The notes under the pieces were generated by a model, which did not search any database, had not been told where the DNA came from, and saw only the letters and a program-made list of their open reading frames with translations. Positions 12,307 through 62,342 of a stretch of DNA of 64,000 bases are shown in pieces. Position 1 is the stretch's first letter. The number at the start of each line of letters is the position of its first letter. This DNA comes from a virus (lineage: Duplodnaviria; Caudoviricetes). The stretch is from positions 224,001 through 288,000 of IMG/VR virus record IMGVR_UViG_3300035208_004923, one strand, 5' to 3'. Made by a program: the position numbers and the translations under genes.

Positions 12307-12981
12307 TCAATCCCATTTTGCTTTTGGCAGAAGCTTTTTACCTAATTCTATAAATTTTTCACGTACTGTATTGATTTCTATTTCATTAATAAACAGATGT
12401 TTTCTTTCTTCTAGCCACATTTCAATTATCGTGTTCATTGATACTTTCATCGTTTTTGCTTTTTGATGAAAACCGTATACGTATGCATATAATTCGGGGT
12501 ATTCAAGAACATAACTGAAATATGATTCATCGTCACTTTCAATATCATTAATTTTCAAAAAATCTTTTTTGATGATTAATTCTAAATCCTCATCTTTGTT
12601 TGTGTTATTAAATTGGGACACATGCTCAATTTCATGTCGAATTGTATCTTTAAATTCTGCTATGAAATTATTATATTCTAATGGAAACTTTTTATTGTTT
12701 ATAATGATACTAAAAATAACATATGAAAAATTGCCGTGATCATAATTATCAACACAACCGTCTATGTCAAATGCCATTTCAGCATCAGGATCTTTCGATA
12801 TTCTTACGGTAAATGGCACAACATCAATAAAATCAATGTCGCTTTGTATAATTATGTTTTTCTTTCTAGATTTTAAGAATTTTTTCAATTCTTGAACATA
12901 ATATCTACTTATTTCTAATACGATAGCATTATAACTTCCAGTAAATACAAATGTTGCAAAATCTATTCGTTTACGTTTCAC
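12307..12981 (-). CDS. Putative zinc metallopeptidase
   Basis: HExxH motif RHEIEH and downstream ELYAY. Confidence 0.55.
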   Translation of the reverse strand: MKRKRIDFATFVFTGSYNAIVLEISRYYVQELKKFLKSRKKNIIIQSDIDFIDVVPFTVRISKDPDAEMAFDIDGCVDNYDHGNFSYVIFSIIINNKKFPLEYNNFIAEFKDTIRHEIEHVSQFNNTNKDEDLELIIKKDFLKINDIESDDESYFSYVLEYPELYAYVYGFHQKAKTMKVSMNTIIEMWLEERKHLFINEIEINTVREKFIELGKKLLPKAKWD

Positions 12982-13238
12982 GTTAACCCTTCTTTAATCT
13001 TTGTTCTTATTTCATCTTCGTATTTGTCCCATTCAACATTATCATATTCTTCTTTCATTTTATTTAGAATATATTCTGTTGCTTCTCCGCAATCATAACT
13101 GTTTGGATTATTGTAATTTGGAAATTTTGTTGCGATATCTTCCCAATACGCATCTTCCAATGAATTGTCATATATTGCATCAGCTTCAGGCGATTCCATT
13201 AACAGAAATTCGTCAAATGTAGGTATTCTTTTGTTCAT
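12978..13238 (-). CDS. Leader-bearing putative internal head protein
   Basis: N-terminus MNKRIPTFDEFLLMES. Confidence 0.6.
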   Translation of the reverse strand: MNKRIPTFDEFLLMESPEADAIYDNSLEDAYWEDIATKFPNYNNPNSYDCGEATEYILNKMKEEYDNVEWDKYEDEIRTKIKEGLT

Positions 13239-13243
13239 TGCGT

Positions 13244-13624
13244 TTATGAATTTAATTGTTGTGTTTGGTCATCAGATACTGTTACGTCCGATGTAGTATC
13301 GGTTGATGCATTATCAGTTGTTGTATTATCAGTTGTTGCATTATCTGTTACTTCATTTCTATGCAATGGCATATTGCCATCTTTTGATAATTTTCTAGCA
13401 CCTAATAAAACAGTTCCTAATGTAACCATACCGAGACTTTGTAACAATACATTGTCTGCTCCTGATGAAACTCCTAAAAACCAATACATTGCCAACCCTG
13501 ATACAAATCCTATTAATCCTGTCATCACAGACAATACACCTGCGAAACCGGAACCTGATGTTTTTCCGTTGTTATTACTGAAAATTTCTCTCCAGTTAAA
13601 TTTCGTGATATTTGAAATGTCCAT
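13244..13624 (-). CDS. Two-TM membrane protein (holin-like) with TDNxT repeat tail
   Basis: Two hydrophobic segments; C-terminal DNATTDNTTTDNAST. Confidence 0.45.
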   Translation of the reverse strand: MDISNITKFNWREIFSNNNGKTSGSGFAGVLSVMTGLIGFVSGLAMYWFLGVSSGADNVLLQSLGMVTLGTVLLGARKLSKDGNMPLHRNEVTDNATTDNTTTDNASTDTTSDVTVSDDQTQQLNS

Positions 13625-13638
13625 GATATTTAATTATT

Positions 13639-15048
13639 TTAATATACTTTTGCAAACACAGATGAAAATGATGATTGCGATGCAGCATATAAAACTATAT
13701 CATTTATAATATCATTTTCTTTGTTTGAATTTTTTATTGCACTTAAAACTTTCATTCCAAGATATTTTGAAAAAATCCATCCTTGTTCGCTAGGATTTGA
13801 TGCTTTGCCTTTTACAAAATCGCCAAACGTGTTTATATCATACGAATGAGAGTTATCAAATTCATTGTATAATAAGAACATGTCATCAATGAAATTTGCA
13901 TCAGGCTTCATTGAATTTTTCTTTATTTCAGTATAATTCAAAATTGGTGGCGTTACACCATTATAATTCATAATTCCTAAAATAGGTGTCAAACCGCATT
14001 TGCCACCAGCTGCGTATTTGCCTTGTATTTCTAATGCCCAATTTGAAAAAGCATTAAATGTTCTACCTTCAGATTTGCCACCATTGAATGACATAAATAC
14101 TTTCATATTTGATTCAAATGTTGATTTTTTTCCGTCCGAAACAGTATATGTTATAGGATGAAAGTTTGGTTTTTCGCTACCGCCATTAAATATTTCAACC
14201 TTAGGTTTACCTTCGGTTTTCTTTAACGATATTGGAACAAACTGTCTTTTATTGAATAACTCTAAAATCTCTTCATTTAGCGCAGGTAATGATGTAGTGT
14301 TTAAATCTGCAACAATAACAGATGGCAATATACCAAAAATATCGGCGGGATTCCATTTATCAGAATTAAAAGAAATTTCAGAATTTGTTCCTGCTGTTTT
14401 TGCGAGTTCATATATTTTTTTAAAGATTGCTGAACCTCTATGAAAAATCATTCCTTTTGAAATAATGCCTTTATTGAATAATTCATTTGCAATTACAACT
14501 GATGATGTAATCCAATCATCTTCAATTTTGCTTATAACATCATCAACCGATGTTGATGCTTGAACGTATTGTGCCGCTTTTTTCAATACATCAGGAGTGA
14601 ATGCGCTTTCATCAGATTCTGAATTTAAAATATTGCAAACAGCAGAACAATAATAGCATTGTGCAGATTCATTTAAATCTGTATTATCAGCACCTCCGCG
14701 TTTTCCGCCTCCGCTACCAAATTCAGCAGTTTTCAAGAATTGCGATGTTGATATAGTAGTCGACTTGCCCTTTATTTCACCTTTTAAATTGAATGATAAT
14801 GGGTGTGTTAAATCTAAATTATTTATTTTATTGATTGCATCATCAGTATCAGTAACCGTAAAAAAACCACCTTTTACTAATTCTATAGGCTCGTGATTCA
14901 TTATTTTACGTTTCAAAATTTCGGTGCGAAGTTCACCTGTTTTTGAATTTATTTTTCCTAATTCTTGTGCACCAAGGTTTGTTTCGTTTAACTGTGTTTT
15001 TAAATACTCGTCTAAACCTAAAAAACCATTAATGTTTATATGCTTCAT
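13639..15048 (-). CDS. Putative PD-(D/E)xK restriction-like nuclease with divergent leader
   Basis: DKWNPADI...ISLKK motif; N-terminus GLDEYLKTQLNE|T. Confidence 0.5.
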   Translation of the reverse strand: MKHININGFLGLDEYLKTQLNETNLGAQELGKINSKTGELRTEILKRKIMNHEPIELVKGGFFTVTDTDDAINKINNLDLTHPLSFNLKGEIKGKSTTISTSQFLKTAEFGSGGGKRGGADNTDLNESAQCYYCSAVCNILNSESDESAFTPDVLKKAAQYVQASTSVDDVISKIEDDWITSSVVIANELFNKGIISKGMIFHRGSAIFKKIYELAKTAGTNSEISFNSDKWNPADIFGILPSVIVADLNTTSLPALNEEILELFNKRQFVPISLKKTEGKPKVEIFNGGSEKPNFHPITYTVSDGKKSTFESNMKVFMSFNGGKSEGRTFNAFSNWALEIQGKYAAGGKCGLTPILGIMNYNGVTPPILNYTEIKKNSMKPDANFIDDMFLLYNEFDNSHSYDINTFGDFVKGKASNPSEQGWIFSKYLGMKVLSAIKNSNKENDIINDIVLYAASQSSFSSVFAKVY

Positions 15049-15098
15049 TTATTATTTTATTTTATATATTCATCAAAAATTGTCTTTATGAACTGCAT

Positions 15099-15125
15099 AA
15101 AAAAAAGGGAACCGAAGTTCCCTTT
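15099..15125 (-). terminator. Intrinsic terminator
   Basis: GGGAAC-CGAA-GTTCCC hairpin with T-run; same hairpin at 54740. Confidence 0.8.
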
Positions 15126-15169
15126 ATTCAGCATTGCCGACCACTTTGTTTTTAAGAAACAAAGAAAAC

Positions 15170-33270: not shown

Positions 33271-33492
33271 TTATATTTTGATTTTATTTATTTGTGTTTC
33301 TAATTCATCTGCAAAGTTTTGTTCAAAATCGCTGGCATCAGCTGATTTGTTATATGCAGTTTTCAAATAGTTATATGCATGGTCATCAAGTTGTTTGAAT
33401 TTTTTAGGGTCATGACCTAATAATACTAAATATTTATCGAATGATTCTTTTTCATCTATAAATTTGTCGAATGACGGTATTCTTTTTTCCAT
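33271..33492 (-). CDS. Leader-bearing putative internal head protein
   Basis: Start reassigned to ATG 33492: MEKRIPSFDKFIDEKES. Confidence 0.6.
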   Translation of the reverse strand: MEKRIPSFDKFIDEKESFDKYLVLLGHDPKKFKQLDDHAYNYLKTAYNKSADASDFEQNFADELETQINKIKI

Positions 33493-33698: not shown

Positions 33699-33793
33699 AG
33701 TATTTTATTTTATATATTCATAGAACAAAAGACAAAAAAAAATCCAGAGCAATTGCTCTGGATTTGAAAACCAACCGTTAAGATTAGTTTATG

Positions 33794-40093: not shown

Positions 40094-40585
40094 TTATTTT
40101 TTTATCATATCACTGTTCCAAGCCAGTAACGTTGGAACAACACTTTGAAAATCATCTTCGGAATTTAACTCTTTTTTGTCTTTTAATGACTTGATGAAAT
40201 CTGATAATTTTGATACTATGGTATTAACGCCAATCCCAATATGATTACTATGTCCATCAAAATATACGTAATCGCCATTTATATCATCATACATTAAAAT
40301 AACAGGACGATTTGCCCATAATCTTGCTTGCGTTCTTGACCAAAGTTCTCGGTATTTGTATGGTGTTGACAGATTGCATTTAAAACCCATTTCCTCTACA
40401 TTTAATTGCAATTTGAAATTTTTTGTTGGCACGCCATAAATAATAGTAGGATTTTTAACGTAATTCGAAGCAAGAAATACTAAATTTTTAAGTGTTACTT
40501 CCGCATACGTTACTTCATAAATACTTTCGTTTATTATTTGACTTTCATTGATGAATTCGTCAAGTGTTGGTATTCTTCTTTCCAT
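40094..40585 (-). CDS. Leader-bearing putative internal head protein
   Basis: MERRIPTLDEFINESQIINES. Confidence 0.7.
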   Translation of the reverse strand: MERRIPTLDEFINESQIINESIYEVTYAEVTLKNLVFLASNYVKNPTIIYGVPTKNFKLQLNVEEMGFKCNLSTPYKYRELWSRTQARLWANRPVILMYDDINGDYVYFDGHSNHIGIGVNTIVSKLSDFIKSLKDKKELNSEDDFQSVVPTLLAWNSDMIKK

Positions 40586-41694: not shown

Positions 41695-41946
41695 TTAGTC
41701 AAGTGCTTTGCCATCAGGATATTCACCTTTTGCAATTGCGTATTTTACAATGTCAACAGTATCAAATGCAGGATGCGGTGCTATACCGCCATTGTATTTT
41801 TTGTCCCATTCTGCTACTGATGAAGGATTATTAATGTCAAATTCTTTATTTACGTATGCTTTAACAACATACATAGAAAACCACGATTTTGGGGTTCTTA
41901 CGCTCTCGTTAATAAATTGTTCTAATGTAGGTATTCTTTGTTTCAT
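41695..41946 (-). CDS. Leader-bearing putative internal head protein
   Basis: MKQRIPTLEQFINES. Confidence 0.7.
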   Translation of the reverse strand: MKQRIPTLEQFINESVRTPKSWFSMYVVKAYVNKEFDINNPSSVAEWDKKYNGGIAPHPAFDTVDIVKYAIAKGEYPDGKALD

Positions 41947-41978
41947 TGATATACTTTATTTTATATATTCATATCAAA

Positions 41979-43344: not shown

Positions 43345-43902
43345 TTAAATGTTGATGAATTCTTTTTCTCCAGTTGTATGACTGTAAGTATACACTTCTG
43401 GATTAAATTGTTTTGGTTCAGTTAATTCTTTTGCGTATTTTTTACCACAACCTGGTTTTAAATATGCAATTGTTATGTGTGGGTGGTAATCAGGAAAATC
43501 TGATGTATATTCAAAGTTTTCACATATTTCTTTGTTAAGCTTAAATAAATTATCGCCTTGTATGTCGTACTTTAATACATCATATTTTGGATTTTCAAAA
43601 ATGCTAATAGCATCCGAACTTAATTCAATTGTTGATAAAGATGGCAGCATACTTTTTAACTTTTCCATGTCTGTATCTGCGTGTAAGCCGTAAAGTACAG
43701 TTACGTGTGGCTCTGTTTCAAATCCGTAATCTTCCTCTTCGGTATACAAATCATTGGCATCAACCAATGTATGAATAAAATTGTCCCATCCGTCGGTATT
43801 TACATTTACCATTAGACAACTATAATCGTATACTTGTTTTGATGCCTCATTAATTTGTTTTTGTTCAACAAATTCGTTTAATGTTATGATTCTTTGTTTC
43901 AT
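43345..43902 (-). CDS. 2H phosphoesterase, Acb1 (T4 57B)-like, with leader
   Basis: PHVTVLYG and DFPDYHPHITIAY (two HxT motifs); leader MKQRIITLNEFVEQKQINEA. Confidence 0.75.
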   Translation of the reverse strand: MKQRIITLNEFVEQKQINEASKQVYDYSCLMVNVNTDGWDNFIHTLVDANDLYTEEEDYGFETEPHVTVLYGLHADTDMEKLKSMLPSLSTIELSSDAISIFENPKYDVLKYDIQGDNLFKLNKEICENFEYTSDFPDYHPHITIAYLKPGCGKKYAKELTEPKQFNPEVYTYSHTTGEKEFINI

Positions 43903-43908
43903 ATGTAT

Positions 43909-44166
43909 TTATTTTAAAAAACTTCTAAGTCGTGGGTAAGTAGATAAGTTAAATCTTTCGTTTTTGAGCCATTCAATAAATTTGGATTTGTTATCAATAT
44001 TTTCGATGTCAATTTCATCATCGTATTCATTTGATTTTTTTGCAGATACGCCAATATCGCGTAATGTTTTTATGGTTTCCTCAGTGTCCTTTACTTGTAA
44101 TGAATCAATCATTCCATTTGATTTGCGGAGAGGGAAATCGGTTATAGATGATAATCTATTTTCCAT
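43909..44166 (-). CDS. Hypothetical protein with divergent leader
   Basis: MENRLSSITDF; GAATATATAA upstream. Confidence 0.55.
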   Translation of the reverse strand: MENRLSSITDFPLRKSNGMIDSLQVKDTEETIKTLRDIGVSAKKSNEYDDEIDIENIDNKSKFIEWLKNERFNLSTYPRLRSFLK

Positions 44167-44247
44167 AGCAACTTGTTTTTTTAATGTTTGTTTGTATTTT
44201 ATATATTCATTAAATCTGAAGCATGATGAATATCATAAAAACAAATG

Positions 44248-47210: not shown

Positions 47211-47711
47211 TTACTTCATTATGTTTACAAACTTTCTGAAAAGTTTTTCTAATAAATCACCTGTTACTCTAACGTCTAATTTGTTTTGTTTATACGTAAC
47301 TGTTTCTCTTTCGTAATCAGTATTTTTGAAACTCCAAGCAGAAGGCGCAGTTGAACCCATTGCTTTTGCAAATCCTTCGATATCTTGAGGTTTAGCACGT
47401 GTAACAGTTAATGTTACTTGTTTGTTTTCAAAAATTTCAGAATCAATACCTACGTATATTCCTCTTTCAGATACACCAGAAATTGAATATGCGTCAAGAT
47501 CTTGATATACTTCTAAATCAAATTCATTAAATAAATTTGTAATAGTAACCCATAAAGCAACTTCTCTATCTGTTGGTTCTAATGGTTCATCTTCATTAAC
47601 TTCATTGAAGTTTTTTGCAACTTTTTGTGCATTCCAATTAAATGTTTTTCCTTCGTTTAATTGTTTTGATTCATTGATGTATTCATCAAGTGTTGGTACT
47701 CTGTTTGCCAT
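47211..47711 (-). CDS. Leader-bearing putative internal head protein
   Basis: MANRVPTLDEYINESKQLNEG. Confidence 0.7.
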   Translation of the reverse strand: MANRVPTLDEYINESKQLNEGKTFNWNAQKVAKNFNEVNEDEPLEPTDREVALWVTITNLFNEFDLEVYQDLDAYSISGVSERGIYVGIDSEIFENKQVTLTVTRAKPQDIEGFAKAMGSTAPSAWSFKNTDYERETVTYKQNKLDVRVTGDLLEKLFRKFVNIMK

Positions 47712-47715: not shown

Positions 47716-48837
47716 TTATTTATTTATTTTATCTAATTCTGTTTTTGTTTCTTTCATTTTCTTTTGCATGTCTTTCATATCATCTAAAGACTTCGAAGAT
47801 TCTAGTTTTAATTTATTTATTTTCGTATCAATTGAATTTTTATCTGTAGCAGTTTCTTTTTCTTTTTCTAATTCTGCTATCTTACTATCAATACCTTGTT
47901 TATACTTCATTTCATCTTCAATATTCTTGCTGAAATCTTTAATCGTTGATTCCAATTCGGCAATTTTATCTGCTTTTTTTGTTTCTGCTGGATTAGCATC
48001 AGCAGGTTTAGCATCAGCAGGTTTAGCATCAGCAGGTTTAGTGTCAGCAGGTTTAGCATTCGCTTTCTTTTTGCCAACGATAACAGTTTTTCCTTGTTTA
48101 TCTTGTAGTGATATTACGTCGTAATCGCCTGAATCAATTTGTTCTTTAGAAACAGGAACAAATCCATTTTCTTTAGCAGCTGCAACTTTATCTACTTTAG
48201 ATTCTTCTTTTTGTTGTGCTGCTAATGTTTCGTCAGCTTTCTTTGCTTGATTTTGCAAATTTTTGTATGTATTTTCAAGGTCGCTATATTCTGAATCGCT
48301 ATACATACCTTTTGCAACTGTTCGTACTTTAGTAAGTGCTGCTAATTTTGCTTTTGTTTTATACATGCCTAACACATTATCAACGCCGTATCGTTTTGCA
48401 ATTTCTTCCATACGATCTTCGATTGCTGATACTGCATCACCGTCTGCAGTGACTTTTATTTTTTGTGCTTCTGTTGCATGATTTCGTTGGTCCTGGTCCA
48501 TTTTCTCCCATCTTGGAGTTTTCTTTAATTTCATTAATTCAATTGGCGCCATTTTCCATGCAAGATACGCATTTGCATATTTCTTTACATTATTTTTCAA
48601 TTTTGTTTTGCCAATCATTCTCATAAAAAAGTTGGAACCACCTTCAGCCTCATTTAAAGGTAAAAACATTTCGTCTGCAATATTTGAAATTTCGCATTCT
48701 GTTATAAATTCTTCAATATTGTTGTCCCATACGAATGCATTATACTGTTCGTTAATCGACCCTAATAATTCGCTTTCTTTTATAAAAACGTTAGCTATAA
48801 ATAATTCCTTACCTTTTGTGTAATCAGTATATTTCAT
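47716..48837 (-). CDS. Coiled-coil putative virion protein with PADAK repeats
   Basis: INE/ITE/LNE sites near N-terminus; KPADTKPADAKPADAKPADANPA. Confidence 0.6.
   Translation of the reverse strand: MKYTDYTKGKELFIANVFIKESELLGSINEQYNAFVWDNNIEEFITECEISNIADEMFLPLNEAEGGSNFFMRMIGKTKLKNNVKKYANAYLAWKMAPIELMKLKKTPRWEKMDQDQRNHATEAQKIKVTADGDAVSAIEDRMEEIAKRYGVDNVLGMYKTKAKLAALTKVRTVAKGMYSDSEYSDLENTYKNLQNQAKKADETLAAQQKEESKVDKVAAAKENGFVPVSKEQIDSGDYDVISLQDKQGKTVIVGKKKANAKPADTKPADAKPADAKPADANPAETKKADKIAELESTIKDFSKNIEDEMKYKQGIDSKIAELEKEKETATDKNSIDTKINKLKLESSKSLDDMKDMQKKMKETKTELDKINK
47986..48060. repeat. About five 15-bp tandem repeats encoding KPADA
   Basis: gcaggtttagcatca units. Confidence 0.85.
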
Positions 48838-48937
48838 TGAAACTTTATTTTATTATATATTCATAAATATAATTAAGTTTTAAACTTTTTACCTTTTATG
48901 TATATAAATTATACAAAAATATACTTAAAAGAAACAT

Positions 48938-50402: not shown

Positions 50403-50651
50403 TTATTTTAACCCTCGTCTTTCAACTTCTAGTTTAACAAGATTTCTTTGAAAGTCAAGTGGCGTATTCGGTATAGGATTATCTTTTGAATTATACCATA
50501 TCATTAAAGTTTCATCACTTAACTTTCTTATTTGTGTTTTGTATTCGGCTGGTGTCCAATCATCACCAAGCCATCCTAACGAACGAAGTATTTTTGTTAA
50601 ATTTGAAGATTCGTTAATGAATTCATCAAACTTCGGTATTCTCTTTTCCAT
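50403..50651 (-). CDS. Leader-bearing putative internal head protein
   Basis: MEKRIPKFDEFINES. Confidence 0.7.
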   Translation of the reverse strand: MEKRIPKFDEFINESSNLTKILRSLGWLGDDWTPAEYKTQIRKLSDETLMIWYNSKDNPIPNTPLDFQRNLVKLEVERRGLK

Positions 50652-51814
50652 TATTCGCCTTTATCTTTTTTAATTGCGGCTGCAACTGTATGAACTGCAG
50701 TTTCTGCTATTGTTGTTAAAAATAATCCTTTAGATACTAATTCCAAAGTATGTAATATCCATCCAATTCCTGGTATCAATACAATGATACTTGCAGCAAT
50801 TGCTGTTTCTCCTAAATGTTCAATCATGCCAGCAACACCATGTTCTAAAACATAGCCGGCAAGAATTCCAAACAATGTTCCCATAAACACAAATTCAAAT
50901 GGTCCTGGCGCGCCAATATATTTTGTTAACATTTGAGATGCCTTTTCAAACGCGTTGTTTGCATTTTTTGCAACAAATGCTTCAGCATGATGCATCCAAG
51001 TAAACGGAGGGAATTTTGTTAATTTTTTTGCAATTGATGATACTAATGGCAAATGAATTGTTCCATGCCCGTCAGATTCAAATACGTCATATCCTTCAGT
51101 AATCAATTCAGCCATTGATAAGTATACAGCTTTTTCCATTATGTATTCAATTGATTCATTTGTTTTTGTTGCTGCTGTAATTCCTTGTGTCATTGTTTTT
51201 GCAGCATCACCTGTAAAATATTGAATCGTATGTTTACACATTGCTCCAAGATTCTTTATTTCTTCTGATGTTTTATCAACACCATGTTTATGAATTTTTG
51301 GAGTTGCTGATTCAATAATTTTATCCTTCAATGGCGCATATTTAGATTGCGTTTGGTTATAAATCCATGCCCATGCTTTCTTTAAAAATGTTGCAATTGT
51401 ATTTGAAATAACTTTAACTAATCCAGTAATATCTGAACCTATTTTAATAAGTACTTCTTGTGTTTTCGATAACGCAGATTTTCCTTTTTCTTTTGCAGTT
51501 TCAATTGCTGCAGCTGCTTTATCTTTCCATTTTTGCGCTAAACTTTCGCCAGCTTCATTAATTGATAAACACCATTCATAAACAGCGTTTTCATTTAACG
51601 TTCCTTCAAATAAATCGTTTGTTCCGTTATTTTCTTTAATAATAACAAGTACAGATTTTTCAAGTTCGTTTAGGATTATTGACTTTTCTGACAACAAAGA
51701 TTCGATTAATTTTTCTTTGTGGTCTATTTGAATGAATTTATCATAATCTTTTTGAATTGCAATAAACGCATTCTCGTTTACATATTCGTTTAATGTAGGT
51801 ATTCTATGTTTCAT
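50651..51814 (-). CDS. Leader-bearing protein with C-terminal hydrophobic helices
   Basis: MKHRIPTLNEYVNE; several LNE/INE sites; FVFMGTLFGILAGYVL, IAASIIVLIPGIGWIL. Confidence 0.7.
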   Translation of the reverse strand: MKHRIPTLNEYVNENAFIAIQKDYDKFIQIDHKEKLIESLLSEKSIILNELEKSVLVIIKENNGTNDLFEGTLNENAVYEWCLSINEAGESLAQKWKDKAAAAIETAKEKGKSALSKTQEVLIKIGSDITGLVKVISNTIATFLKKAWAWIYNQTQSKYAPLKDKIIESATPKIHKHGVDKTSEEIKNLGAMCKHTIQYFTGDAAKTMTQGITAATKTNESIEYIMEKAVYLSMAELITEGYDVFESDGHGTIHLPLVSSIAKKLTKFPPFTWMHHAEAFVAKNANNAFEKASQMLTKYIGAPGPFEFVFMGTLFGILAGYVLEHGVAGMIEHLGETAIAASIIVLIPGIGWILHTLELVSKGLFLTTIAETAVHTVAAAIKKDKGE

Positions 51815-51818: not shown

Positions 51819-52103
51819 TTAATTTCTCTTTTTTAATTTATTTAAAAGATTCTTTGGAATAAACGTCAAATCTGTATCTTCTTCAAACGAAACAAGCCAT
51901 TCGCTATAACTAATGTCTATGACGTCATCACGGTGCTTAGGATCTTTGATTATTTTTAAAAGTTCTTCCCATTCTTTATGTGCAGCAGAACTAGATTTAT
52001 CACCTTCAAATTCATAATCATCTGAATTCATAAAACTTAAAGGATGTGCAATATATTCGTTGACGAATTCATCAAGTGTCGGTATTCTTTTTTTCATATG
52101 CAT
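51819..52103 (-). CDS. Leader-bearing putative internal head protein
   Basis: MKKRIPTLDEFVNE. Confidence 0.7.
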   Translation of the reverse strand: MHMKKRIPTLDEFVNEYIAHPLSFMNSDDYEFEGDKSSSAAHKEWEELLKIIKDPKHRDDVIDISYSEWLVSFEEDTDLTFIPKNLLNKLKKRN

Positions 52104-53413: not shown

Positions 53414-53668
53414 TTATTTTTTATCAGCCACGTCACTTAAAAGACCTTGATAGTCATTAAGTTTCGACAATTTTTTTTCTAAACTATCAATAGCAGATTG
53501 CGAACGTGCATTTGATATTTTATCTGTTACTATATAAATCTCTTCATCAATTATCTCTTGAATGTCTTTTATTTTTTCAATAGACATTGCATCTAATTCT
53601 TTTTCTTTATAAAAAGTTATTGAACTTTCATTGATAAATTCATCCAAACTTGGTATTCTTTGTTTCAT
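53414..53668 (-). CDS. Leader-bearing putative internal head protein
   Basis: MKQRIPSLDEFINES. Confidence 0.7.
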   Translation of the reverse strand: MKQRIPSLDEFINESSITFYKEKELDAMSIEKIKDIQEIIDEEIYIVTDKISNARSQSAIDSLEKKLSKLNDYQGLLSDVADKK

Positions 53669-53746
53669 ACTAATTTGTTTATTTTATATATTCATAAATT
53701 AAAGCATAAAAAAAAAACGGAACTTTACGCTCCGTTTCAATTTAAC

Positions 53747-54610
53747 TTATATAGTTCTTATGCCTTTAACTTTTATATTGCCTTGTGGGTCTCGTATTAC
53801 ATATTGTTTTTTTCCAACAAACATACCTTGATATCCAGGTTCTACATCAAACGAATGATACGTATAATCAGCGCCACGCATAGTTGCAAAAAATCTTTCA
53901 TTAATTTCATTAAAATTATTGAAATATATCGTGTCAGTATCAATATAAACGTAATGGCCTGGGAATATTTGTTCAGCTTTATGTAATATTCTATTTACGT
54001 TAAACGGTATTCTGTCTGCATTGAAACTGTTAAATTTTAAAGGTGACTTATTGCTAGCAATCATACCGAATACGTAATTTATAAATATCTTTAAAACTAA
54101 ATTTGCATTAGAATAATCTTGATTATTTTCGATTTGTGCATGTTTCAATTCTATTCGCAAATCTTTTGCTCTTGAAAAAATTGAATGAAAATTTGAATGC
54201 GTACATATTGAACTATTTGATAATTTTAGTATTTCTGTTGGATATGCAGATACTATACTAACAGCAGTTAAATTTGTTGCCCATTTATTTGCAAAATTGC
54301 TGTTTACAACAACTGTACCTGGGATGAATGATTCTTTGTTTGTGTAAATTACATTCATGTTATAATCAATCTCTGGCATTGTTGGCACATCACCATGTAA
54401 AAAATGTAATAAAGAATAAACAAAATACCAGACTTCAATCTTATTTTCGATTTCAAGTAGTTCTTTATTGTTTAATACGTTTAATAGATTATCAACAGTT
54501 CGTATCGGTGGATTACTTTGCCATGTTTTAATTGCTCTTTGTAAACCGTTGTTGAATGATTCTGCATACAATGCTGCATCGTTTGGAAATGATTGTTTTA
54601 CTTTTGTCAT
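53747..54610 (-). CDS. Truncated, degenerate family-B DNA polymerase palm/fingers paralog
   Basis: SIVSAYPTEI (motif A, Asp lost), KIFINYVFG (B), YIDTDTIY (C), KKQY, VKG. Confidence 0.65.
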   Translation of the reverse strand: MTKVKQSFPNDAALYAESFNNGLQRAIKTWQSNPPIRTVDNLLNVLNNKELLEIENKIEVWYFVYSLLHFLHGDVPTMPEIDYNMNVIYTNKESFIPGTVVVNSNFANKWATNLTAVSIVSAYPTEILKLSNSSICTHSNFHSIFSRAKDLRIELKHAQIENNQDYSNANLVLKIFINYVFGMIASNKSPLKFNSFNADRIPFNVNRILHKAEQIFPGHYVYIDTDTIYFNNFNEINERFFATMRGADYTYHSFDVEPGYQGMFVGKKQYVIRDPQGNIKVKGIRTI

Positions 54611-54798: not shown

Positions 54799-56508
54799 TT
54801 ATACTAAACCTCCAGCTGGAGTAGCAACGAAGAATGTGAAATACATTGTTTCTGGGTGGAAACCTGCTTCAACAAGAGCGTAACGAGATTTAACGGCAAC
54901 TTTCGGAGTCATTGTACCTTCAGCAATTGTTTGGATAGTTTCAGCCATCAAGTAAGGCATGTATTTTAATCCTGGTTCTTCATCAGCACCTTTACGTCCT
55001 ACTAATACACGAGTATCAGACCAAGACATGTTAGGGTCAACATATACAGTCATACCTGCAACAGCACCTACTGGGTAAAGTGAACCGTTGTTTTGGTTGA
55101 TTGTATTTGCCATTGGAGCAAATGTGAATTGTGCAGAATCTTGTAAGATTGTAGCGATTTGAAGGTTTGTAACAATGAAGTTAGCAGGACCTCTACGACC
55201 TCTTTGAGAGATTACGTTACCACCAGCAAGAATTCTTGAGAAAACTCTACGTTGAACAGTCCATTGGTTTTCAAATGCTGCAGAAGGATTAGCTCCAGCG
55301 AACAATGACATAACAGGAACAGACATTGTAGTAGTTGCACCGTCTTTATTGTTGAATGTTTGGTAAGTTGTACTAGCACTTGGGTCAGTTTGCAAGTTGA
55401 AGTTTTGACCTTCTACTTCAGCAAATGTATTGTGGTTAGTCCATCCTAAAGCAAACGCTCTTGATAAGATGTGTTTGTTGATTGATTGAGATACTTCGTT
55501 CACTAATGAATTTTCAACCATACCTACAACATCGATACCGAATTGACGGTTAAGATCTTGTATTTGTTCAGTTGTTACAGTAGCAGCAGCTTGGTAAGTT
55601 TCAGCTTCAACGAACTTAGTGAATGTTTGAAGACCCATAGTTCTGTAGTAAGTTTGTTCACCAATACCTCTTCTCATTGGTTCTGGGTTAGAAGCACCAT
55701 TTGCATAGTTTCCAGTCCAAGCATCACCATCTTGAGCACCAGCACCAGTATATCCTTGGATATGATCTTCTAAAGCTTTCACTAAAGAAGCAGTTGCAGT
55801 ACAAGGTGTAGCAGCAGGAGAACCATCAGAATCAATTGTAAATGCAGATCCAGTGTTGAATACATCAGCAACTAATAAATGAGGAGTTGAGATAGAAGCA
55901 GTTTGCCAAGCAGAACCGATTTTATATTTTTCGCCAGATTTAAGAGCACGGAAGATTTTGTATGCATCGATACGAGATTTACCAATATAGATTAACTCTA
56001 AGTTGTTTGATCCTGAAGTTGCAACATATTTAGTACCTACTGTGTAAGAACCACCGATGTTAACTTTAATCATTGTTGGGTTTTCTGCGTTTGCATCAGA
56101 TGGGTCGTTTGGTAATTTACCACCAGCATAAACGTAGTCAAGGTAAGTTAATACTCCTGAAGGACCGTTCATTGGAATTACAGGTACAATATCAAAACCG
56201 ATTGTTCTAGCACCAACTTGGATTGCAAGAGGTAAAAGAGAAGGGAATTTGTCACCTGAACCAGTTGCAGCGCTATGGAAAGCAGCACCACCAGCAACTT
56301 GACCTGTAGCCACGTTACCCATACCTGGAGTGTTTTGTAAAGATGCAGCAGGCCATGCCCATCCGCCTACGAAAGAAGATTCATTCAAAGCGTGGAAGTG
56401 GCAATATTTTGATAACCAAGCAAGTTTACTTTTGTCTGTAATTTGCGTTTTTTCTTCTACGATTGGTGCCCATTCTTCGAAAATTTGTTTTTCGTTTAAA
56501 AGTTTCAT
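54799..56508 (-). CDS. Major capsid protein (T4 gp23-like)
   Basis: VPVIPMNGPSG, EQIQDLNRQFGID, RRGPANFIV, YMPY, VKSRYAL; biased codon usage; start reassigned to ATG 56508. Confidence 0.92.
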   Translation of the reverse strand: MKLLNEKQIFEEWAPIVEEKTQITDKSKLAWLSKYCHFHALNESSFVGGWAWPAASLQNTPGMGNVATGQVAGGAAFHSAATGSGDKFPSLLPLAIQVGARTIGFDIVPVIPMNGPSGVLTYLDYVYAGGKLPNDPSDANAENPTMIKVNIGGSYTVGTKYVATSGSNNLELIYIGKSRIDAYKIFRALKSGEKYKIGSAWQTASISTPHLLVADVFNTGSAFTIDSDGSPAATPCTATASLVKALEDHIQGYTGAGAQDGDAWTGNYANGASNPEPMRRGIGEQTYYRTMGLQTFTKFVEAETYQAAATVTTEQIQDLNRQFGIDVVGMVENSLVNEVSQSINKHILSRAFALGWTNHNTFAEVEGQNFNLQTDPSASTTYQTFNNKDGATTTMSVPVMSLFAGANPSAAFENQWTVQRRVFSRILAGGNVISQRGRRGPANFIVTNLQIATILQDSAQFTFAPMANTINQNNGSLYPVGAVAGMTVYVDPNMSWSDTRVLVGRKGADEEPGLKYMPYLMAETIQTIAEGTMTPKVAVKSRYALVEAGFHPETMYFTFFVATPAGGLV

Positions 56509-56539: not shown

Positions 56540-58591
56540 TTATCTGTTGAATCTATCAAGATTTGCTTTTACGCTTTCCATATAGCTTTTGCTATATCCA
56601 CGTTGTGCAGCTCCAGTTTCTTCAACAATTTGAGCATTTGCTGATTCGTTCAGCGTACCGTTGCCTTCAACTTTATGCAATCCACGAGTTTGCCAGAAAT
56701 TGATTACTTGTCGTTCAGTATTCAATGGGTACAATTTCGATTGTGAAGCAATTTGATTCTTTGCAGATTCAGTTAGAGATTCCCAAGTTGCTTTGTACTC
56801 CTCAGGCATTTTTTCTAACCATAGGTCAGATTTTGGTGCTAGAGATTGAGTTGCTGCTCTTTCAAGTAAAGCAGTCATTTCTTCTTTACTTTTGTGGTTG
56901 TTTTCATTGATAGACGATGCAATCTGTTGTTTTTGAATGTCTGTAAAAGAAATAAATTTCTTAACTTGTTCGCCATCTAAATTCTTTAAGAAAGGATAAT
57001 TTTCAATGTGTTCATTGATTGGATTCATCTTTTGTGTTTGGATAGATTCCAATAAGTTGTCAATTTTGCTTCCTAAAGAAGTATATTTACTTAATATGTT
57101 TTCTTTTTCATTAACAACAGCTTCATTAACAATTGGAGCAGTTGTGTTTGTTTTTACGCTTTCAGAAATTGCTTCAGCAAAACCTGCAACGTTTTCAAGA
57201 TCTTCACGAGTTGCAGCATTTTCACCTAAGTAATCAGCGTATACGTGAACTTCGTTTGTTTTCTCCATGATATAATCTTGGTAGTTCCATAAGTGATTAA
57301 TTTTTTCAGTAATTACTTCTTGGATATAAGATTGTGTTTCATGTAATTCTTTTGCTAAAACTTCTTCAGCATAATTTAAACCGTAATTTGCTTGTTCTGC
57401 AATTTTCTCAGAGTAAGCAATATTTTTTTCAAGTAACGGTCTAATTTTATCGTTTAAATAACCAGCAACATAATTATGATCTTCAGCAATTTTTTCAGTG
57501 TATGCAGCAACATGATTATGATCTTCTGCAATACGTTGTGTATAATCTGCTAACCAGTTATGATCTTCACCAATCAATTCAACATAATTAATTGTATCAG
57601 AAACATATTTAGAAAGTTCATTAGAATATTTCTTGATTGTAACAATTTCACCTTCAAGAACTTTAATTCTTTCATTTGTTTCATCGGTTGTAGATTCTTG
57701 TGGCTTAACAGATAAAGATTCCATTTTCTTAGTCATTTCAGCGATTGCCGATTCAAACTTTTCCATTTGTTCTTTAACATGTAAAGAATACTTGTACATA
57801 TCTTCAGCCGTAACAGTATTATTATTTTTTTCCATGCTTGATGAATTATTTTTATTATATATTGCTTCATTCAATGCATTTTTTTCAACTTGTGCATTTT
57901 GGGTTGAAGCAGGTTTTGTTTTCTTTGTTAAACTAAAATCATATATACTAAAATCAGCACCTTCAATTAATAAATCAGGATACTTATCAGTCACATCGTA
58001 TAAATTAATGCCATCAGCACCATTGAATCCTAATTCTTTATTTAATGAAGGTAATTCAGTTTCCATTACTAATCCTGAACAGATAGATTCGTATACACGT
58101 TCCATTTCAGCATTATCGCCAAATCCGCCATCCGCAACTAAATCATAAGTGAAGATTCTTTTGATTTTAACTTCTTTGTTTTCTTTAACAACACCTGCAG
58201 CTCTAGATGAAATACTAATAGGGAAACCTGAATCAACAAGTTTTCTAGCATTTAAACCAGCAGGGTCAGTATCTAATAATCGAATACGTCCTTTAAGTGT
58301 ACGTGTTTCTTTATCATACCAAATTTTTTCAACAAGATGTGAAATGTTTGCAAGACTTACATCGAATTTTTCAGGATGATCTAATTCACCAGCTAATTTA
58401 TTTCTTTTGATTTTTTCTTGTAAATATTCCAAGTGTGGCATGTATTCGTCTTCTTCGTAAATTCTATGATTTACGTTTTCTTTACCGAATACACAAAAAA
58501 TTCCTTCAAGAATATAATTGTCTTTATCAACAACTTTAAATTCATGACCAGATTTTTCAGTTAATAAAAATACCTTAGCGTTTTTTGACAT
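56540..58591 (-). CDS. Prohead protease (gp21-like) fused to scaffold/core domain
   Basis: NVNHRIY, GELDHP, ISH, ISSRAAG, TYDLVADGGF; coiled-coil tail with AEDHN repeats and many [LIV]NE sites. Confidence 0.88.
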   Translation of the reverse strand: MSKNAKVFLLTEKSGHEFKVVDKDNYILEGIFCVFGKENVNHRIYEEDEYMPHLEYLQEKIKRNKLAGELDHPEKFDVSLANISHLVEKIWYDKETRTLKGRIRLLDTDPAGLNARKLVDSGFPISISSRAAGVVKENKEVKIKRIFTYDLVADGGFGDNAEMERVYESICSGLVMETELPSLNKELGFNGADGINLYDVTDKYPDLLIEGADFSIYDFSLTKKTKPASTQNAQVEKNALNEAIYNKNNSSSMEKNNNTVTAEDMYKYSLHVKEQMEKFESAIAEMTKKMESLSVKPQESTTDETNERIKVLEGEIVTIKKYSNELSKYVSDTINYVELIGEDHNWLADYTQRIAEDHNHVAAYTEKIAEDHNYVAGYLNDKIRPLLEKNIAYSEKIAEQANYGLNYAEEVLAKELHETQSYIQEVITEKINHLWNYQDYIMEKTNEVHVYADYLGENAATREDLENVAGFAEAISESVKTNTTAPIVNEAVVNEKENILSKYTSLGSKIDNLLESIQTQKMNPINEHIENYPFLKNLDGEQVKKFISFTDIQKQQIASSINENNHKSKEEMTALLERAATQSLAPKSDLWLEKMPEEYKATWESLTESAKNQIASQSKLYPLNTERQVINFWQTRGLHKVEGNGTLNESANAQIVEETGAAQRGYSKSYMESVKANLDRFNR

Positions 58592-58614: not shown

Positions 58615-58624
58615 TTATATATTC
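58615..58624 (-). promoter_or_regulatory. Putative late promoter GAATATATAA (representative of about 13 copies)
   Basis: Same 10-mer at 935, 2182, 15062, 16738, 33710, 34319, 41961, 44199, 48853, 53684, 62641 (minus) and 31647 (plus), each upstream of a start codon; resembles T4 late TATAAATA. Confidence 0.75.
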
Positions 58625-58933: not shown

Positions 58934-59230
58934 TTATCGTTTTTTAAATTTATAAATCAAATATATTAATGCGGAAATAATTAAAACTTCGTTAAAATAT
59001 TCCAATAAGTTTGCGCTATTAAAATTAATGTTATGAAACATTGCAAAAAATTCGCCGATTGCGTAAAGAAGAGAGAAAAGAATAGTAACTTTAAGAAAAT
59101 TGATAACTTGCATACGTGTTAAACATATCATAGCTTTAACATTTTGTTTAAATCTTATGTATGTTTTAATAGACTTTAATAATAAGAAAAATGATAAACC
59201 GATTAATAAAATATGCAATGCTGTGTTCAT
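58934..59230 (-). CDS. Three-TM membrane protein
   Basis: Three hydrophobic segments. Confidence 0.55.
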   Translation of the reverse strand: MNTALHILLIGLSFFLLLKSIKTYIRFKQNVKAMICLTRMQVINFLKVTILFSLLYAIGEFFAMFHNINFNSANLLEYFNEVLIISALIYLIYKFKKR

Positions 59231-59775: not shown

Positions 59776-59872
59776 TAAATTGTGTTATTTTACGTATAGA
59801 ATCACAATGTGATTGTTTAATTATATATTACATTCAAAAATGAACATTATTGAAGAATATAATGGTTTAGGA

Positions 59873-60271
59873 CTATTTATATGTGTATGCAGCCAAACTT
59901 TTACCATATTTATCTGCAAATTCTGGCAACTTTGCATTTGGACATGAATCAATAATTTCTAATGGTTTTCCTTCAAACATTGGACGGTCGGATTGGTCTG
60001 CTTTAAATGATTGCGTTCCGCCTATGGGTTTCATTGATTTTTTTCCTGCCGTGAATACAACTATTGTTTTGATAATGTTTCCGTTGTAATCTTTATTTGC
60101 CCATATTTCAGCTGTTCCATCAGGCCATGTTTCATACACGTTGAAATATTTTGATGAACCGGTTTTGAGATTTAATGTTCCGATTGATGCAACAGCAGCA
60201 CCAGAATTATAACGTCTGTTATTGTTTGCTTCATTGATAAATTCATCTAATGATGGTATTCTTCTTTCCAT
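59873..60271 (-). CDS. Leader-bearing putative internal head protein
   Basis: MERRIPSLDEFINEA. Confidence 0.7.
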   Translation of the reverse strand: MERRIPSLDEFINEANNNRRYNSGAAVASIGTLNLKTGSSKYFNVYETWPDGTAEIWANKDYNGNIIKTIVVFTAGKKSMKPIGGTQSFKADQSDRPMFEGKPLEIIDSCPNAKLPEFADKYGKSLAAYTYK

Positions 60272-60436
60272 AATATTTATATTTTTATTTTATATATTTC
60301 CTGGAAAAAAAGCATAAAAAAACGGATTACCTCTTTCGAAGTAATCCGTAATTTTTTTGGAGCCGAATGAATTGTTCGGCAACTCCACCACTTTGTTTAA
60401 TATTTTATGCGGTAAAACAAAGAAACCGCCTTTTCT

Positions 60437-61162
60437 TTAATAATATTTTACAATCTGTTGATTTCCGTTATATACTTCGTCAGCTAATTGCTTTAATTTA
60501 TCGTTTATATTTTGAGTAAAAACATTTTCAGATATGCGAATAAGCCTATACGAATTAAGTATACACCATTTTTCTAATGCCGCATCTTTATCTTGTTTTT
60601 CTTTTAATTGATTATGAATGTTTTTAAAATGCCATATGCCATCGTATTCGATGCATACCTTTAATTTATTTGAATATAAATCTCGAGATATCCTATATTC
60701 ATCAATATTTAAGTTTCCGCCAAATGTCCAATTATCGTCAGGATATTCAGATTTAAAAAAATCTCGTATAATTAATTCATTTTTTGATGAAAACCTTTTA
60801 TTTTTTAAATGACTACTTGTTGTTAATTGCAAATTGCTATTAGTTTTCCACGCTTGCTTTAAACTTAAGCTCATCTTATTACGAGTTTCTATTGAATGAT
60901 TTCGTGTATTGCTACATGAAACTGAACAATAATACTTTTCTTTGCATTTATTTTCATGCTCTTTTATCGAAAATGATTTCCCACAAATATGGCACGAAAC
61001 GATTTTTTCTATAATTTCGCCATTAATCTTTTTATACCGATTAATGGCGTTTTCTTTATTTTTTGCAATGCTTGCAATATTGTCTTTATGCGCCCACCGT
61101 ATATGATTTGCGTATAATGAATGATTTTCAAATCCCATTCCGCAAGTTTCACATTTTTTCAT
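60437..61162 (-). CDS. Free-standing Vsr/DUF559-like homing endonuclease
   Basis: C2H2/CxxC fingers, HSIETRNKMS (NUMOD-like), IEYDGIWH, RLIRI. Confidence 0.7.
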   Translation of the reverse strand: MKKCETCGMGFENHSLYANHIRWAHKDNIASIAKNKENAINRYKKINGEIIEKIVSCHICGKSFSIKEHENKCKEKYYCSVSCSNTRNHSIETRNKMSLSLKQAWKTNSNLQLTTSSHLKNKRFSSKNELIIRDFFKSEYPDDNWTFGGNLNIDEYRISRDLYSNKLKVCIEYDGIWHFKNIHNQLKEKQDKDAALEKWCILNSYRLIRISENVFTQNINDKLKQLADEVYNGNQQIVKYY

Positions 61163-61247
61163 AACATATTTTATTTATCAAATTGGATGTGAAAGAACTC
61201 GAACTAATAAATAAAACGGTTGCCTACTGTTGTAAGCAACCGTTTTG

Positions 61248-61906
61248 TGGAGGTGCGGGGATTCGCAAATGTTATCAATATGTTTCCATATTGTTCAGAC
61301 TATATCATCAACTGATTAATAACGATTAATCAGTGTCGGGCGCTTTATCCTGTTATTAAGGAAACTGTATTCCTCAGGTAGTCGTTGAACCTTCACAAAT
61401 TGTAATTTGCGCTTGGCTGCTGATTGGCATATTCAATTGAACTTAGCGTTCCAGCAATTCACCCGATTTATTTTTACTTGGTGTCACCACCAAGGGGGTC
61501 CAATTCCCATTTAAACCCCGGTCCTAGCAAACGAGCCAAAAGCTCTCTACGTGCGTGTGTTATTTTTGGTATTCGACAATTTCATCAATGAGAATAACCT
61601 GAAACTCGATGAATTGGTTTTAACAACAAAAAGTCATATACAAAATGATGTTGTTATCACATTAAGATATGTTACCAAATTGTTTGAAACCCACATATGA
61701 TTGCGTTAGGTAAATTGCAATCGAAGGTTGCTCTTTGCTTAATCTGATTAAGCAGCCATTAGCATTGACTCTCTTTCGAAAGTTGCTATTGAACGAAGTG
61801 CATTGTTAATAGTTTTGCCTATTATGGTTTTGTACGATATATGATTAGTACAATCATCAGCACGCGAACTTCGAACACTGAAAGCAGTCAAAAGCCGGTC
61901 ACCCCC
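61248..61906 (-). ncRNA. ssrA: tmRNA interrupted by a group I intron
   Basis: 5' GGGGGTGACCGGCTTTTGAC; acceptor GGGGGTG/CACCTCC-A with G3:U70; T arm CGGGG-TT|CGAAT-CCCCG after splicing; tag ORF 61819-61748 GKTINNALRSIATFERESMLMAA*. Confidence 0.92.
61266..61513 (-). mobile_element. Group I intron (248 nt, no ORF) in tmRNA T-loop
   Basis: P AATTGCTGGAA, Q AATCAGCAG, R GTTCAACGACTA, S GATATAGTCT; P1 GGGGUU/GACCCC with U:G at splice site; terminal G. Confidence 0.92.
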
Positions 61907-61922
61907 TTATTTGTTGTTTAAT

Positions 61923-61948
61923 TTATATACATTAAGATTCAATAGTTT
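61923..61948 (-). promoter_or_regulatory. Bipartite promoter AAAC-N14-GTATATAA (representative of 10 copies)
   Basis: Same spacing at 16329, 20043, 28930, 29424, 31547, 37449, 47133, 54696 (minus) and 48882 (plus). Confidence 0.8.
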
Positions 61949-62129
61949 TTCTGTAATGAAAATCAATTGGTCTAGATGCAAGTGGAAGAATACTGAAACT
62001 ATCAGTAATTTTTTCTGCATCTGCAATAACTTTTTTTAATTCAATTCCTTCAGATATTATTTCGCGTTTGCTATTTAAAGCAACGTATTTCGATTCTGAA
62101 TTTTTTGGCGTAATTTTTATCGCTGTCAT
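61932..62129 (-). CDS. Hypothetical protein
   Basis: 65-aa ORF. Confidence 0.5.
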   Translation of the reverse strand: MTAIKITPKNSESKYVALNSKREIISEGIELKKVIADAEKITDSFSILPLASRPIDFHYRKTIES

Positions 62130-62342
62130 TTAAAATGTTGATTGCATAATTAGTTTTTTAATATCTTCAATTAATGCTGATTTAGCAGCATCTGCGCCGG
62201 GTTTCATATAATTTTCTTTTATCATATGTTCGACAATAACTGTTGCAAGTACTTGCGCACCAGCAGGTTTTTTATCGCCCGCAACTTGAACCATTGCTTC
62301 ATTAACTGAATATTCTTCAATTGTTGGTATTCTTCTTTCCAT
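62130..62342 (-). CDS. Leader-bearing putative internal head protein
   Basis: MERRIPTIEEYSVNEA. Confidence 0.65.
   Translation of the reverse strand: MERRIPTIEEYSVNEAMVQVAGDKKPAGAQVLATVIVEHMIKENYMKPGADAAKSALIEDIKKLIMQSTF

Follow-up and report, generated by a model that had tools for sequence, protein, structure and literature searches.

A shared N-terminal leader on 65 proteins of an uncultured megaphage resembles the T4 capsid-targeting sequence

The DNA analyzed here (the window) is a 64,000-nucleotide stretch of tailed-virus DNA, positions 224,001 to 288,000 of IMG/VR record IMGVR_UViG_3300035208_004923, and corresponds to bases 224001-288000 of contig C1 (425,361 bp, 31% GC) in a 1.6-Mb, 78-contig assembly. 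It encodes a prohead protease, a major capsid protein and a series of open reading frames (ORFs) that begin with the same short leader peptide, the subject of this report. The leader consensus is M-x-x-R-I-P-[TS]-[LFI]-[DEN]-[DE]-[FYH]-[ILV]-N-E, 14 residues long (14-16 with variants). A 17-residue hidden Markov model (HMM) built from the leaders was run against the six-frame translation of the whole assembly with a cut-off of 12 bits. The search identified 65 N-terminal carriers on C1 with scores of 13-37 bits and noise from ~7 bits, and no match on the other 77 contigs (1.18 Mb) reached 12 bits. A regular-expression search picked out 42-49 carriers, all of them on C1. The carriers make up ~10% of the ~644 ORF calls on C1 and lie in 20 clusters. 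Nineteen of the 65 fall in the window and are given below with one doubtful stretch; bit scores are those of the leader HMM, and a slash marks the predicted cut.

53414..53668, minus strand: leader ORF, 84 aa, first of an eight-gene run, MKQRIPSLDEFINE/S, 36.6 bits
52949..53407, minus strand: leader ORF, 152 aa, second INE/A site 6 residues on, 36.0 bits
52668..52946, minus strand: leader ORF, 92 aa, variant ending (...FSSKE; VSE/A), 27.9 bits
52103..52663, minus strand: leader ORF, 186 aa, INE/G, 31.6 bits, no Pfam family
51819..52097, minus strand: leader ORF, 92 aa (ATG at 52097), VNE/Y, 35.8 bits
50651..51814, minus strand: leader ORF, 387 aa, largest cargo of the genome, 28.8 bits, no Pfam family above cut-off
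50403..50651, minus strand: leader ORF, 82 aa, INE/S, 31.0 bits
50127..50393, minus strand: leader ORF, 88 aa, INE/N then INE/A, last of the eight-gene run, 29.7 bits
47211..47711, minus strand: leader ORF, 166 aa, INE/S then LNE/G, 28.9 bits
43345..43902, minus strand: leader ORF, 185 aa, predicted 2H phosphodiesterase cargo, first site degenerate (VEQ), second site INE/A kept, 24.6 bits
41695..41946, minus strand: leader ORF, 83 aa, heads a four-gene leader operon, 31.5 bits
41133..41663, minus strand: leader ORF, 176 aa, parent copy of a duplicate, 37.0 bits
40594..41124, minus strand: leader ORF, 176 aa, chimera by identity to the 40094 and 41133 genes
40094..40585, minus strand: leader ORF, 163 aa, INE/S then INE/S, 34.2 bits
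33271..33492, minus strand: leader ORF, 73 aa (ATG at 33492), IDE/K, 24.3 bits
32643..33269, minus strand: leader ORF, 208 aa, one-residue insertion FALNE/S, 20.2 bits
12978..13238, minus strand: leader ORF, 86 aa, FLLME/S, third gene of the operon behind the upstream motif at 15071 (described below), 27.1 bits
59873..60271, minus strand: leader ORF, 132 aa, INE/A, 31.8 bits
62130..62342, minus strand: leader ORF, 70 aa, YSVNE/A, 25.3 bits
16354..16725, minus strand: doubtful leader-like stretch, residues 16-24, without an x-x-E end, 12.6 bits, not N-terminal

All the ORFs named in an earlier reading of the window's letters (the sequence-only reading) begin with the leader, and the whole-genome HMM scan that it had proposed found 65 carriers on C1, compared with the about 20 that it had counted in the window. 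Two of its ORFs keep their leaders with revised starts: 33271 begins at the ATG noted above and not at an upstream TTG, and the best start for 51819 is 52097. The internal copy that it had reported in the 16354 ORF is present but doubtful for the reasons listed. In all 65 carriers the leader begins at the initiator Met, and in most the predicted cut falls after residue 14-16. Once residues 1-18 are trimmed away, BLASTP (E < 1e-3) sorts the 65 bodies into 63 families. The bodies had been described as unrelated apart from one duplicate, and the sole related pair in the window is indeed 40594/41133, 100% identical over 158 aa. Cargo lengths range from 70 to 387 residues. A membrane-like segment is found in 1/65 carriers compared with 77/577 other proteins (p = 0.002), which indicates that the cargoes are soluble as judged from their sequences. 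AlphaFold2 (AF2) models place the leader as a separate helix ahead of a folded body. Pfam and PHROGs scans leave ~90% of the cargoes without a recognizable family and return weak matches to LicD, UPF0227 and ParB-like proteins; no ADP-ribosyltransferase was found among the 46 carriers outside the window (Pfam, E <= 0.001).

The leader ends in hydrophobic-x-E in 59/65 carriers. An [ILVMF]-x-E tripeptide occurs at residues 11-18 of 57/65 carriers compared with 65/579 other ORFs, and the narrower [ILVMF]NE occurs there in 43/65 compared with 6/579. The leader Glu is followed by S in 27 carriers, A in 9, N in 6 and G in 5, and S, A or G is present in 41 of the 59. Leaders with a one-residue insertion (FALNE/S, FSLNE/S, YSVNE/A) retain the ending, and 20 carriers have a second such site within 14 residues. 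T4 gp21 cleaves after L/I-x-E, and several redundant sites in one propeptide are known from phiKZ (PMC9026906). The leader end follows the gp21-type rule, as the sequence-only reading had proposed.

The protease and capsid genes in the window belong to the corresponding T4 families.

56540..58591, minus strand: prohead protease of the T4 gp21 family (residues ~1-200) followed by a ~480-residue helical scaffold-like tail; Pfam Peptidase_S77 E = 1.3e-11, phrog_207 head maturation protease E = 1e-32
54799..56508, minus strand: major capsid protein of the T4 gp23 family, true start MKLLNEK; Pfam Gp23 E = 7e-37, matches T4 gp23 structures

The protease-scaffold protein has >1,293 full-length homologues, on contigs up to 390 kb, and relatives' annotation of the gene reads 'prohead core scaffolding protein and protease'. 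No separate scaffold gene was found next to the protease gene. The tail contains six [ILVMF]NE sites, and its INE/S and LNE/S sites are conserved in a 45-row homologue alignment. The capsid protein has a predicted 43-residue propeptide that ends in ALNE/S, a site kept as [LM]NE/S in relatives, and its N-terminus resembles the T4 gp23 delta domain. The recurrence of [LIV]NE in the capsid N-terminus and in the protease scaffold, claimed earlier from the window, is thus borne out. When the protease-scaffold (45 aligned rows) was modeled as a complex with residues 1-40 of the leader proteins (65 rows), the prediction scored 0.00, which carries no weight either way.

Leader, protease and capsid genes also share an upstream motif, GAATATATAA. 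C1 contains 53 copies compared with 3-9 in Markov simulations; counting a T variant as well brings the total to 64, and the gene-rich strand holds 57 of these. The motif mostly lies 12-25 nt before an ATG and is followed by an A-rich sequence, often AATAAA. Leader genes were located within 8 genes downstream of the motif in a tight same-strand run in 85% of cases compared with 27% of other genes (Fisher p = 5e-20), in agreement with the claim that motif-headed operons hold the leader, protease and capsid genes. The copies that bear on these genes in the window are as follows.

58615..58624, minus strand: motif 23 nt before the protease ATG, at the head of the protease-capsid operon
53684..53693, minus strand: motif 15 nt before the first ATG of the eight-gene leader run, which it heads
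41961..41970, minus strand: motif heading the 41695-40094 leader operon, 14 nt upstream of 41695..41946
44199..44208, minus strand: motif heading 43909-44166, then leader gene 43345
48853..48862, minus strand: motif heading 47716-48837, then leader gene 47211
33710..33719, minus strand: motif at the head of the operon that includes leader genes 33271 and 32643
62641..62650, minus strand: motif heading 62357-62626, then leader gene 62130
15062..15071, minus strand: motif heading the operon that ends in leader gene 12978
60290-60299: one-base motif variant AAATATATAA, before leader ORF 59873..60271

GAATATATAA also heads a head-decoration-like gene and the gene of the tail sheath (phrog_34521 E = 8.5e-71). 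We infer from the genes it precedes that the motif is a late/structural promoter.

The leader is conserved as a peptide. In its coding DNA, the first two codon positions carry 1-2.6 bits of information and the third 0.1-0.4 bits. The Pro codon (CCA/CCT/CCG), for example, has 0.3 bit at the third position compared with 2.1-2.2 bits at positions 1/2, and the leader Pro, Thr/Ser, Leu/Phe/Ile, Asp and Phe/Tyr are each spelled by several codons. The 5' untranslated DNA upstream of the leader ORFs is unconserved and just A-rich. Because third codon positions vary and the upstream DNA is unconserved, selection acts on the peptide. The leader-coding DNA has nevertheless been a site of exchange. Gene 40594-41124 matches the 40094 gene exactly over the upstream 80 nt and codons 1-14, and matches the 41133 gene exactly from nt +8 through its stop codon. 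These identities mark 40594-41124 as a chimera, as an unequal crossover within the leader-coding DNA of two neighboring, otherwise unrelated genes would produce. A crossover at this point is what would be expected if the leader were a DNA or RNA element, either a shared translation-initiation region or the border of a recombination cassette, and the peptide had no function. The codon pattern already largely refutes this explanation, as amino acids are kept while third positions vary freely. Leaders with insertions still end in x-x-E followed by a small residue, the untranslated DNA is not conserved, and relatives retain the peptide design with a different sequence. An element acting as DNA or RNA is therefore extremely improbable.

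The T4 tag, the capsid-targeting sequence (CTS), is MKTYQEFIAE. Its residues 4 and 7 (Y4/F7) function in targeting and residues 8 and 10 (I8/E10) in processing (PMC9026906). The C1 segment L8-x-E-F11-I12-x-E14 can be aligned with Y4-x-E-F7-I8-x-E10 of the CTS, and a hydrophobic-x-E-F-I-x-E core appears common to both tags. In T4 (IPI, IPII, IPIII, the Alt propeptide and the polymorphic internal-protein loci), as in C1, a short N-terminal tag (10-19 residues in T4, 14-16 in C1) is carried by unrelated proteins and ends in L/I-x-E, the motif of the gp21-family protease, with cleavage predicted for C1. Both phages have a gp23-family capsid protein with an N-terminal propeptide (predicted in C1), and both cargo sets include counter-defense functions (predicted in C1). 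The differences are in scale and design. There are 65 carriers in C1 compared with 3-4 in T4, the C1 leader has a distinct and longer N-terminal half (M-x-x-R-I-P-[TS]), its site strongly prefers Asn in the middle position, the scaffold is fused to the protease and is not a separate protein such as T4 gp22, and the C1 cargoes are not basic. The likely interpretation of these data is that the leader is a greatly expanded, clade-specific version of the T4 CTS.

C1 derives from a tailed megaphage; DNA-level matches to its capsid/protease region come from LR756500 (462 kb) and the Prevotella Lak phages. In tblastn comparisons the capsid protein shares 47% identity with LR756500, 40% with Lak, 33% with Tenacibaculum phage pT24, 31% with Sphingomonas phage PAU and 29-31% with the 630-735-kb LR7565xx phages. 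Sequence matches thus place the C1 phage as an uncultured, Lak-/LR756500-like megaphage. The C1 ends (1-4593 and 420769-425361) repeat each other over ~4.6 kb at ~98% identity, and the unique sequence is ~421 kb because this ~4.6 kb is duplicated. The repeat could be a terminal repeat or could reflect a circular assembly with strain variation. A non-standard genetic code was rejected for C1: TAA dominates the stops, recoding TAG or TGA does not lengthen the longest ORFs, and the standard code fits. Four more HMM matches on C1 are not N-terminal, and two of these are one copy within the terminal repeat. A leader-like peptide, IPTFNEFLNEN, is located at the C-terminal end of a short ORF inside the end repeat. 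Another leader-like stretch, IPTWDEFVSEN (14.7 bits), is found at C1 ~327180 on the minus strand, 264 residues into a longer ORF, and could be a two-module fusion or an internal processing site.

The earlier suggestion to scan relatives for the leader proved productive. Closer C1 relatives have leaders of the RIP type; one lineage has G, E or Q in place of the Pro. The C1 leader occurs several times per contig on ~25 metagenome contigs of ~30% GC. More distant phages carry leader families of their own. Thirty ORFs of LR756500 start with MKYIKEYEEF[ILV]xE; a DNA pattern finds 19 compared with 1 in the control, and this leader type is present on several IMG/VR contigs. Cultured Sphingomonas phage PAU (JQ362498.1) has 18 ORFs that start with MKT[IL]SKLYEAKLNE (for example 106051, 112151 and 113313) and cluster around the portal, protease and capsid genes. 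The PAU carriers include gp142 and gp154, deposited as 'internal capsid protein', gp152, deposited as 'scaffolding', and 15 others. No paper describing the PAU leader family was found. The C1 leader HMM found nothing near the capsid genes of LR756500 and Lak-A1. A strict leader DNA pattern had no match in IMG/VR, and a looser pattern gave five single matches, of which one 58.9-kb fragment fits four leader ORFs at C1 ~51-53 kb and the rest are weak. A scan of bacterial and archaeal loci (genome_contigs) returned 20 matches, none of which reached 10 bits with the leader HMM.

Two further N-terminal families were noted in Lak-A1 (MK250015.1). Eight dispersed ORFs begin with MNKxIKxL[LI]ESLFDD (for example 22495, 34240, 60222 and 404392), which may be a 10-residue CTS-like tag (L-x-E/S) or a conserved N-terminal domain. 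At ~311.3-313.5 kb, five adjacent ORFs start with MK[VI]QIR.GVFETNSSS, a Ser-rich tag system distinct from the C1 leader.

The cargo with the clearest predicted activity is 43345-43902. Its body starts at ~residue 25 and matches Pfam 2_5_RNA_ligase2 (E = 1.9e-7) and Acb1 (E = 3.3e-6), just above cut-off, and two HxT motifs are invariant across 64 homologues. The AF2 model has a predicted local distance difference test score (pLDDT) of 87.8, with residues 1-27 forming a separate, less confident helix before the fold. The best fold matches are the penguinpox cGAMP phosphodiesterase, the rotavirus VP3 2'-5' phosphodiesterase, a Burkholderia phage phosphodiesterase and phage Acb1; a PDB sequence search was marginal (Acb1 E = 0.86). 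The motifs and the model identify 43345-43902 as a predicted 2H phosphodiesterase of the viral immune-signal-degrading kind. Homologues with a conserved core have an N-terminal extension of at least 10 residues in 113/117 cases, and 111 of the extensions end in hydrophobic-x-E compared with 23 for a control segment inside the protein. Lineages differ in this extension, which may be RIPT-type, MIK[ST][FY]..F[IL]NE, MIK[FL].DLL.E, MNIRxLVRKALLTE, or the T4-like MKTYNDFITE and MKSFKKFIAE; some of these leaders come close to identity with the T4 CTS. The same enzyme therefore appears to be fitted with whichever tag its phage lineage uses. Two of the forms on these homologues, MKTYNDFITE and MIKTYNQFINE, may bridge the C1 and T4 tags.

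The phosphodiesterase bears on what the tagged proteins do. The sequence-only reading called them diverse effectors, which is justified for very few: one 2H phosphodiesterase supports the term, and because only weak family matches exist beyond it, 'effector' is presumptive for nearly all cargoes. An alternative accepts the leader as a prohead-targeting, protease-removed propeptide and makes most carriers parts of core assembly or filler, such as scaffold accessories or regulators of size or pressure. These proteins would be degraded or expelled before or during DNA packaging and would not be effectors delivered to the host. Such a role fits the leader on PAU gp152, the annotated scaffolding protein, and the lack of a recognizable enzymatic family in ~90% of bodies. 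Several carriers also contain many internal [ILVMF]NE sites, for example five in 47211-47711 (166 aa) and five in 50651-51814. T4 core proteins are cut to pieces (PMC9026906), and the multi-site carriers are counted for a core role on account of this likeness. However, most carriers have sites solely at the leader end, and 63 unrelated families are hard to square with structural roles. The cargo content varies among close relatives, as expected for arms-race cargo, and the 2H cargo is a conserved enzyme that in fold comes nearest to viral phosphodiesterases of immune signals. On this evidence most carriers are unlikely to have a core or filler role.

Other known systems share parts of this design. 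The inner-body/ejection proteins of phiKZ, 201phi2-1 and SPN3US come from giant phages with ~19 processed species in the head that are cut after Glu (PMC9026906). They differ in having a diverged gp21-like protease (S/A-x-E), another capsid/protease lineage and many cargoes in paralogous families, and a shared leader sequence is not reported for them in PMC9026906. PAU has the same capsid lineage as C1, and its tag ends in LNE/A or LNE/S on unrelated ORFs; it differs in the N-terminal half of the tag, in having fewer carriers and in a separate scaffolding gene that is itself tagged. Encapsulin cargo-loading peptides are usually C-terminal, bind the shell protein and are not removed, and the compartment is without portal or DNA. 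Like the leader as read here, they are short peptides at the end of unrelated cargo proteins that send these into a shell of the HK97 fold. Two other tag types were considered and rejected. A Sec, Tat or lipoprotein signal peptide, which would place at least 7 hydrophobic residues as a core behind a basic N-region, does not fit R-I-P-T-L-D-E-F-I-N-E, which is acidic and without a hydrophobic stretch. A Ser-rich invariant tag with a radical-SAM/SPASM enzyme encoded beside it does not fit a leader without a Ser run, and the C1 radical-SAM genes are found only at 301.6-303.1 kb, away from all 20 clusters.

The leader might still be another kind of handle: one that a modifying enzyme recognizes, one that sorts proteins to a different compartment made by the phage, or a cytoplasmic signal for degradation or timing. 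The Ser-rich family of Lak-A1 at 311-313 kb is an N-terminal tag family seemingly unrelated to capsids and lends this idea some substance. Against it are the distance of the radical-SAM genes from the leader clusters and the acidic, helical character of the leader, which is neither Ser-rich nor equipped with a hydrophobic signal-peptide core. The leader's cleavage motif recurs in the protease tail and the capsid propeptide, the 2H body bears T4-CTS-like leaders in other phages, and none of the scanned bacterial and archaeal loci gave a leader match of 10 bits or more. We regard a handle of this kind as very unlikely.

Several observations weigh against an expanded CTS. The likeness between the C1 leader and the T4 CTS spans ~7 residues, too short for a statistic of its own, and 6/65 leaders have no recognizable x-x-E site. 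The mature cargoes have a median isoelectric point of 6.4, equal to the rest of the proteome, and are not basic, unlike the T4 internal proteins. The promoter assignment for GAATATATAA draws solely on which genes the motif heads. The PAU 'internal capsid protein' label is a deposited annotation, and N-terminal clustering found no leader family in the cultured relatives pT24 and MA9V-1. To our knowledge, 65 cargo species is far above what any phage head carries via a shared tag, and some carriers may be used differently. On the other side, the address-tag for head loading proposed by the sequence-only reading has gained comparative support from the Peptidase_S77 and Gp23 matches, the CTS-like leader, the leaders of relatives, the PAU annotations and the T4-like leaders on the 2H family. 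Its further idea of a programmable delivery tag is not new, as this is established practice with the T4 CTS (PMC9026906).

Neighboring genes in the window were also noted. Directly downstream of the capsid gene and before the eight-gene leader run, 53747-54610 (minus strand) is a 287-aa ORF with a family-B DNA-polymerase-like motif, YVYIDTDTIYF, and KKQY...KVKG; it has no Pfam match and may be a polymerase fragment or split gene. In the head-gene region between two leader genes, 60437-61162 (minus strand) combines a C2H2 zinc finger with a DUF559-like endonuclease and looks like a homing endonuclease. A PIN_4 and PhoH fusion (E = 1e-35 and 3e-48) at 41979-43328 (minus strand) lies between two leader operons and is itself without a leader. 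The 487-aa product of 38082-39545 (minus strand) belongs to DUF2828/DUF7788 and is von Willebrand A-like in part (E = 1e-40), and 63287-63997 (minus strand) resembles nicotinate phosphoribosyltransferase, with a weak PF04095 match in a relative.

From the sequence comparisons we infer packaging, docking, cleavage, virion residence and injection of the tagged proteins. In the proposed mechanism, leader genes would be transcribed together with structural genes from GAATATATAA-type promoters. The leader would consist of an unstructured M-x-x-R-I-P segment followed by a helix from the [TS]-capped L-D-E-F-I-N-E, and would dock its protein on the prohead core during assembly, with the scaffold-like tail of the protease-scaffold fusion as the most likely docking site. 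Once the shell closes, the gp21-family protease would cut after the Glu of [ILV]-x-E, mostly at INE/S, INE/A or INE/G and often also at a second site a few residues on, to free the mature protein in the head. The soluble proteins (70-387 residues) would stay with the DNA, and at least some would reach the host by ejection. Some may act there at once, the 2H phosphodiesterase against nucleotide immune signals being an example. The leader-coding DNA would also serve as a recombination joint that duplicates and shuffles cargo genes, because ~35-45 nt are common to otherwise unrelated genes.

The principle, as embodied in the T4 CTS and the polymorphic internal proteins, is textbook knowledge. No paper was found on the peptide motif, on CTS expansion in huge phages, or on the scale or clade-specific tags. 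As read from its genes, the phage probably ships an unusually large set of proteins into the host with its DNA. A bolder proposal is that most of the 65 tagged proteins are packed and co-injected as the largest known virion-delivered repertoire, with clade-specific address codes that co-evolve with the scaffold and with their coding DNA as the joint for cargo swaps; this is possible, though on balance we doubt it. If true, the repertoire would amount to ~10% of genes and up to ~1.2 MDa with one copy of each protein packed, and RIPTLDEFINE (C1), MKYIKEYEEF (LR756500) and MKTISKLYE (PAU) would be mutually distinct address codes. The tag provides a simple sequence rule to predict virion cargo in uncultured phages, and natural, apparently orthogonal packaging tags would extend the T4 CTS toolbox. 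Because PAU is a cultured relative with a tag family of its own, the idea can be tested directly. A route by which cargo repertoires diversify is suggested by the crossover within the leader. If the reading as an expanded CTS holds, it would explain part of the purpose of ORFan genes, because about one gene in 10 carries the tag, and huge phages would bring dozens of finished proteins into the cell, some of them enzymes for destroying immune signals, and would not depend on early gene expression alone for its takeover.

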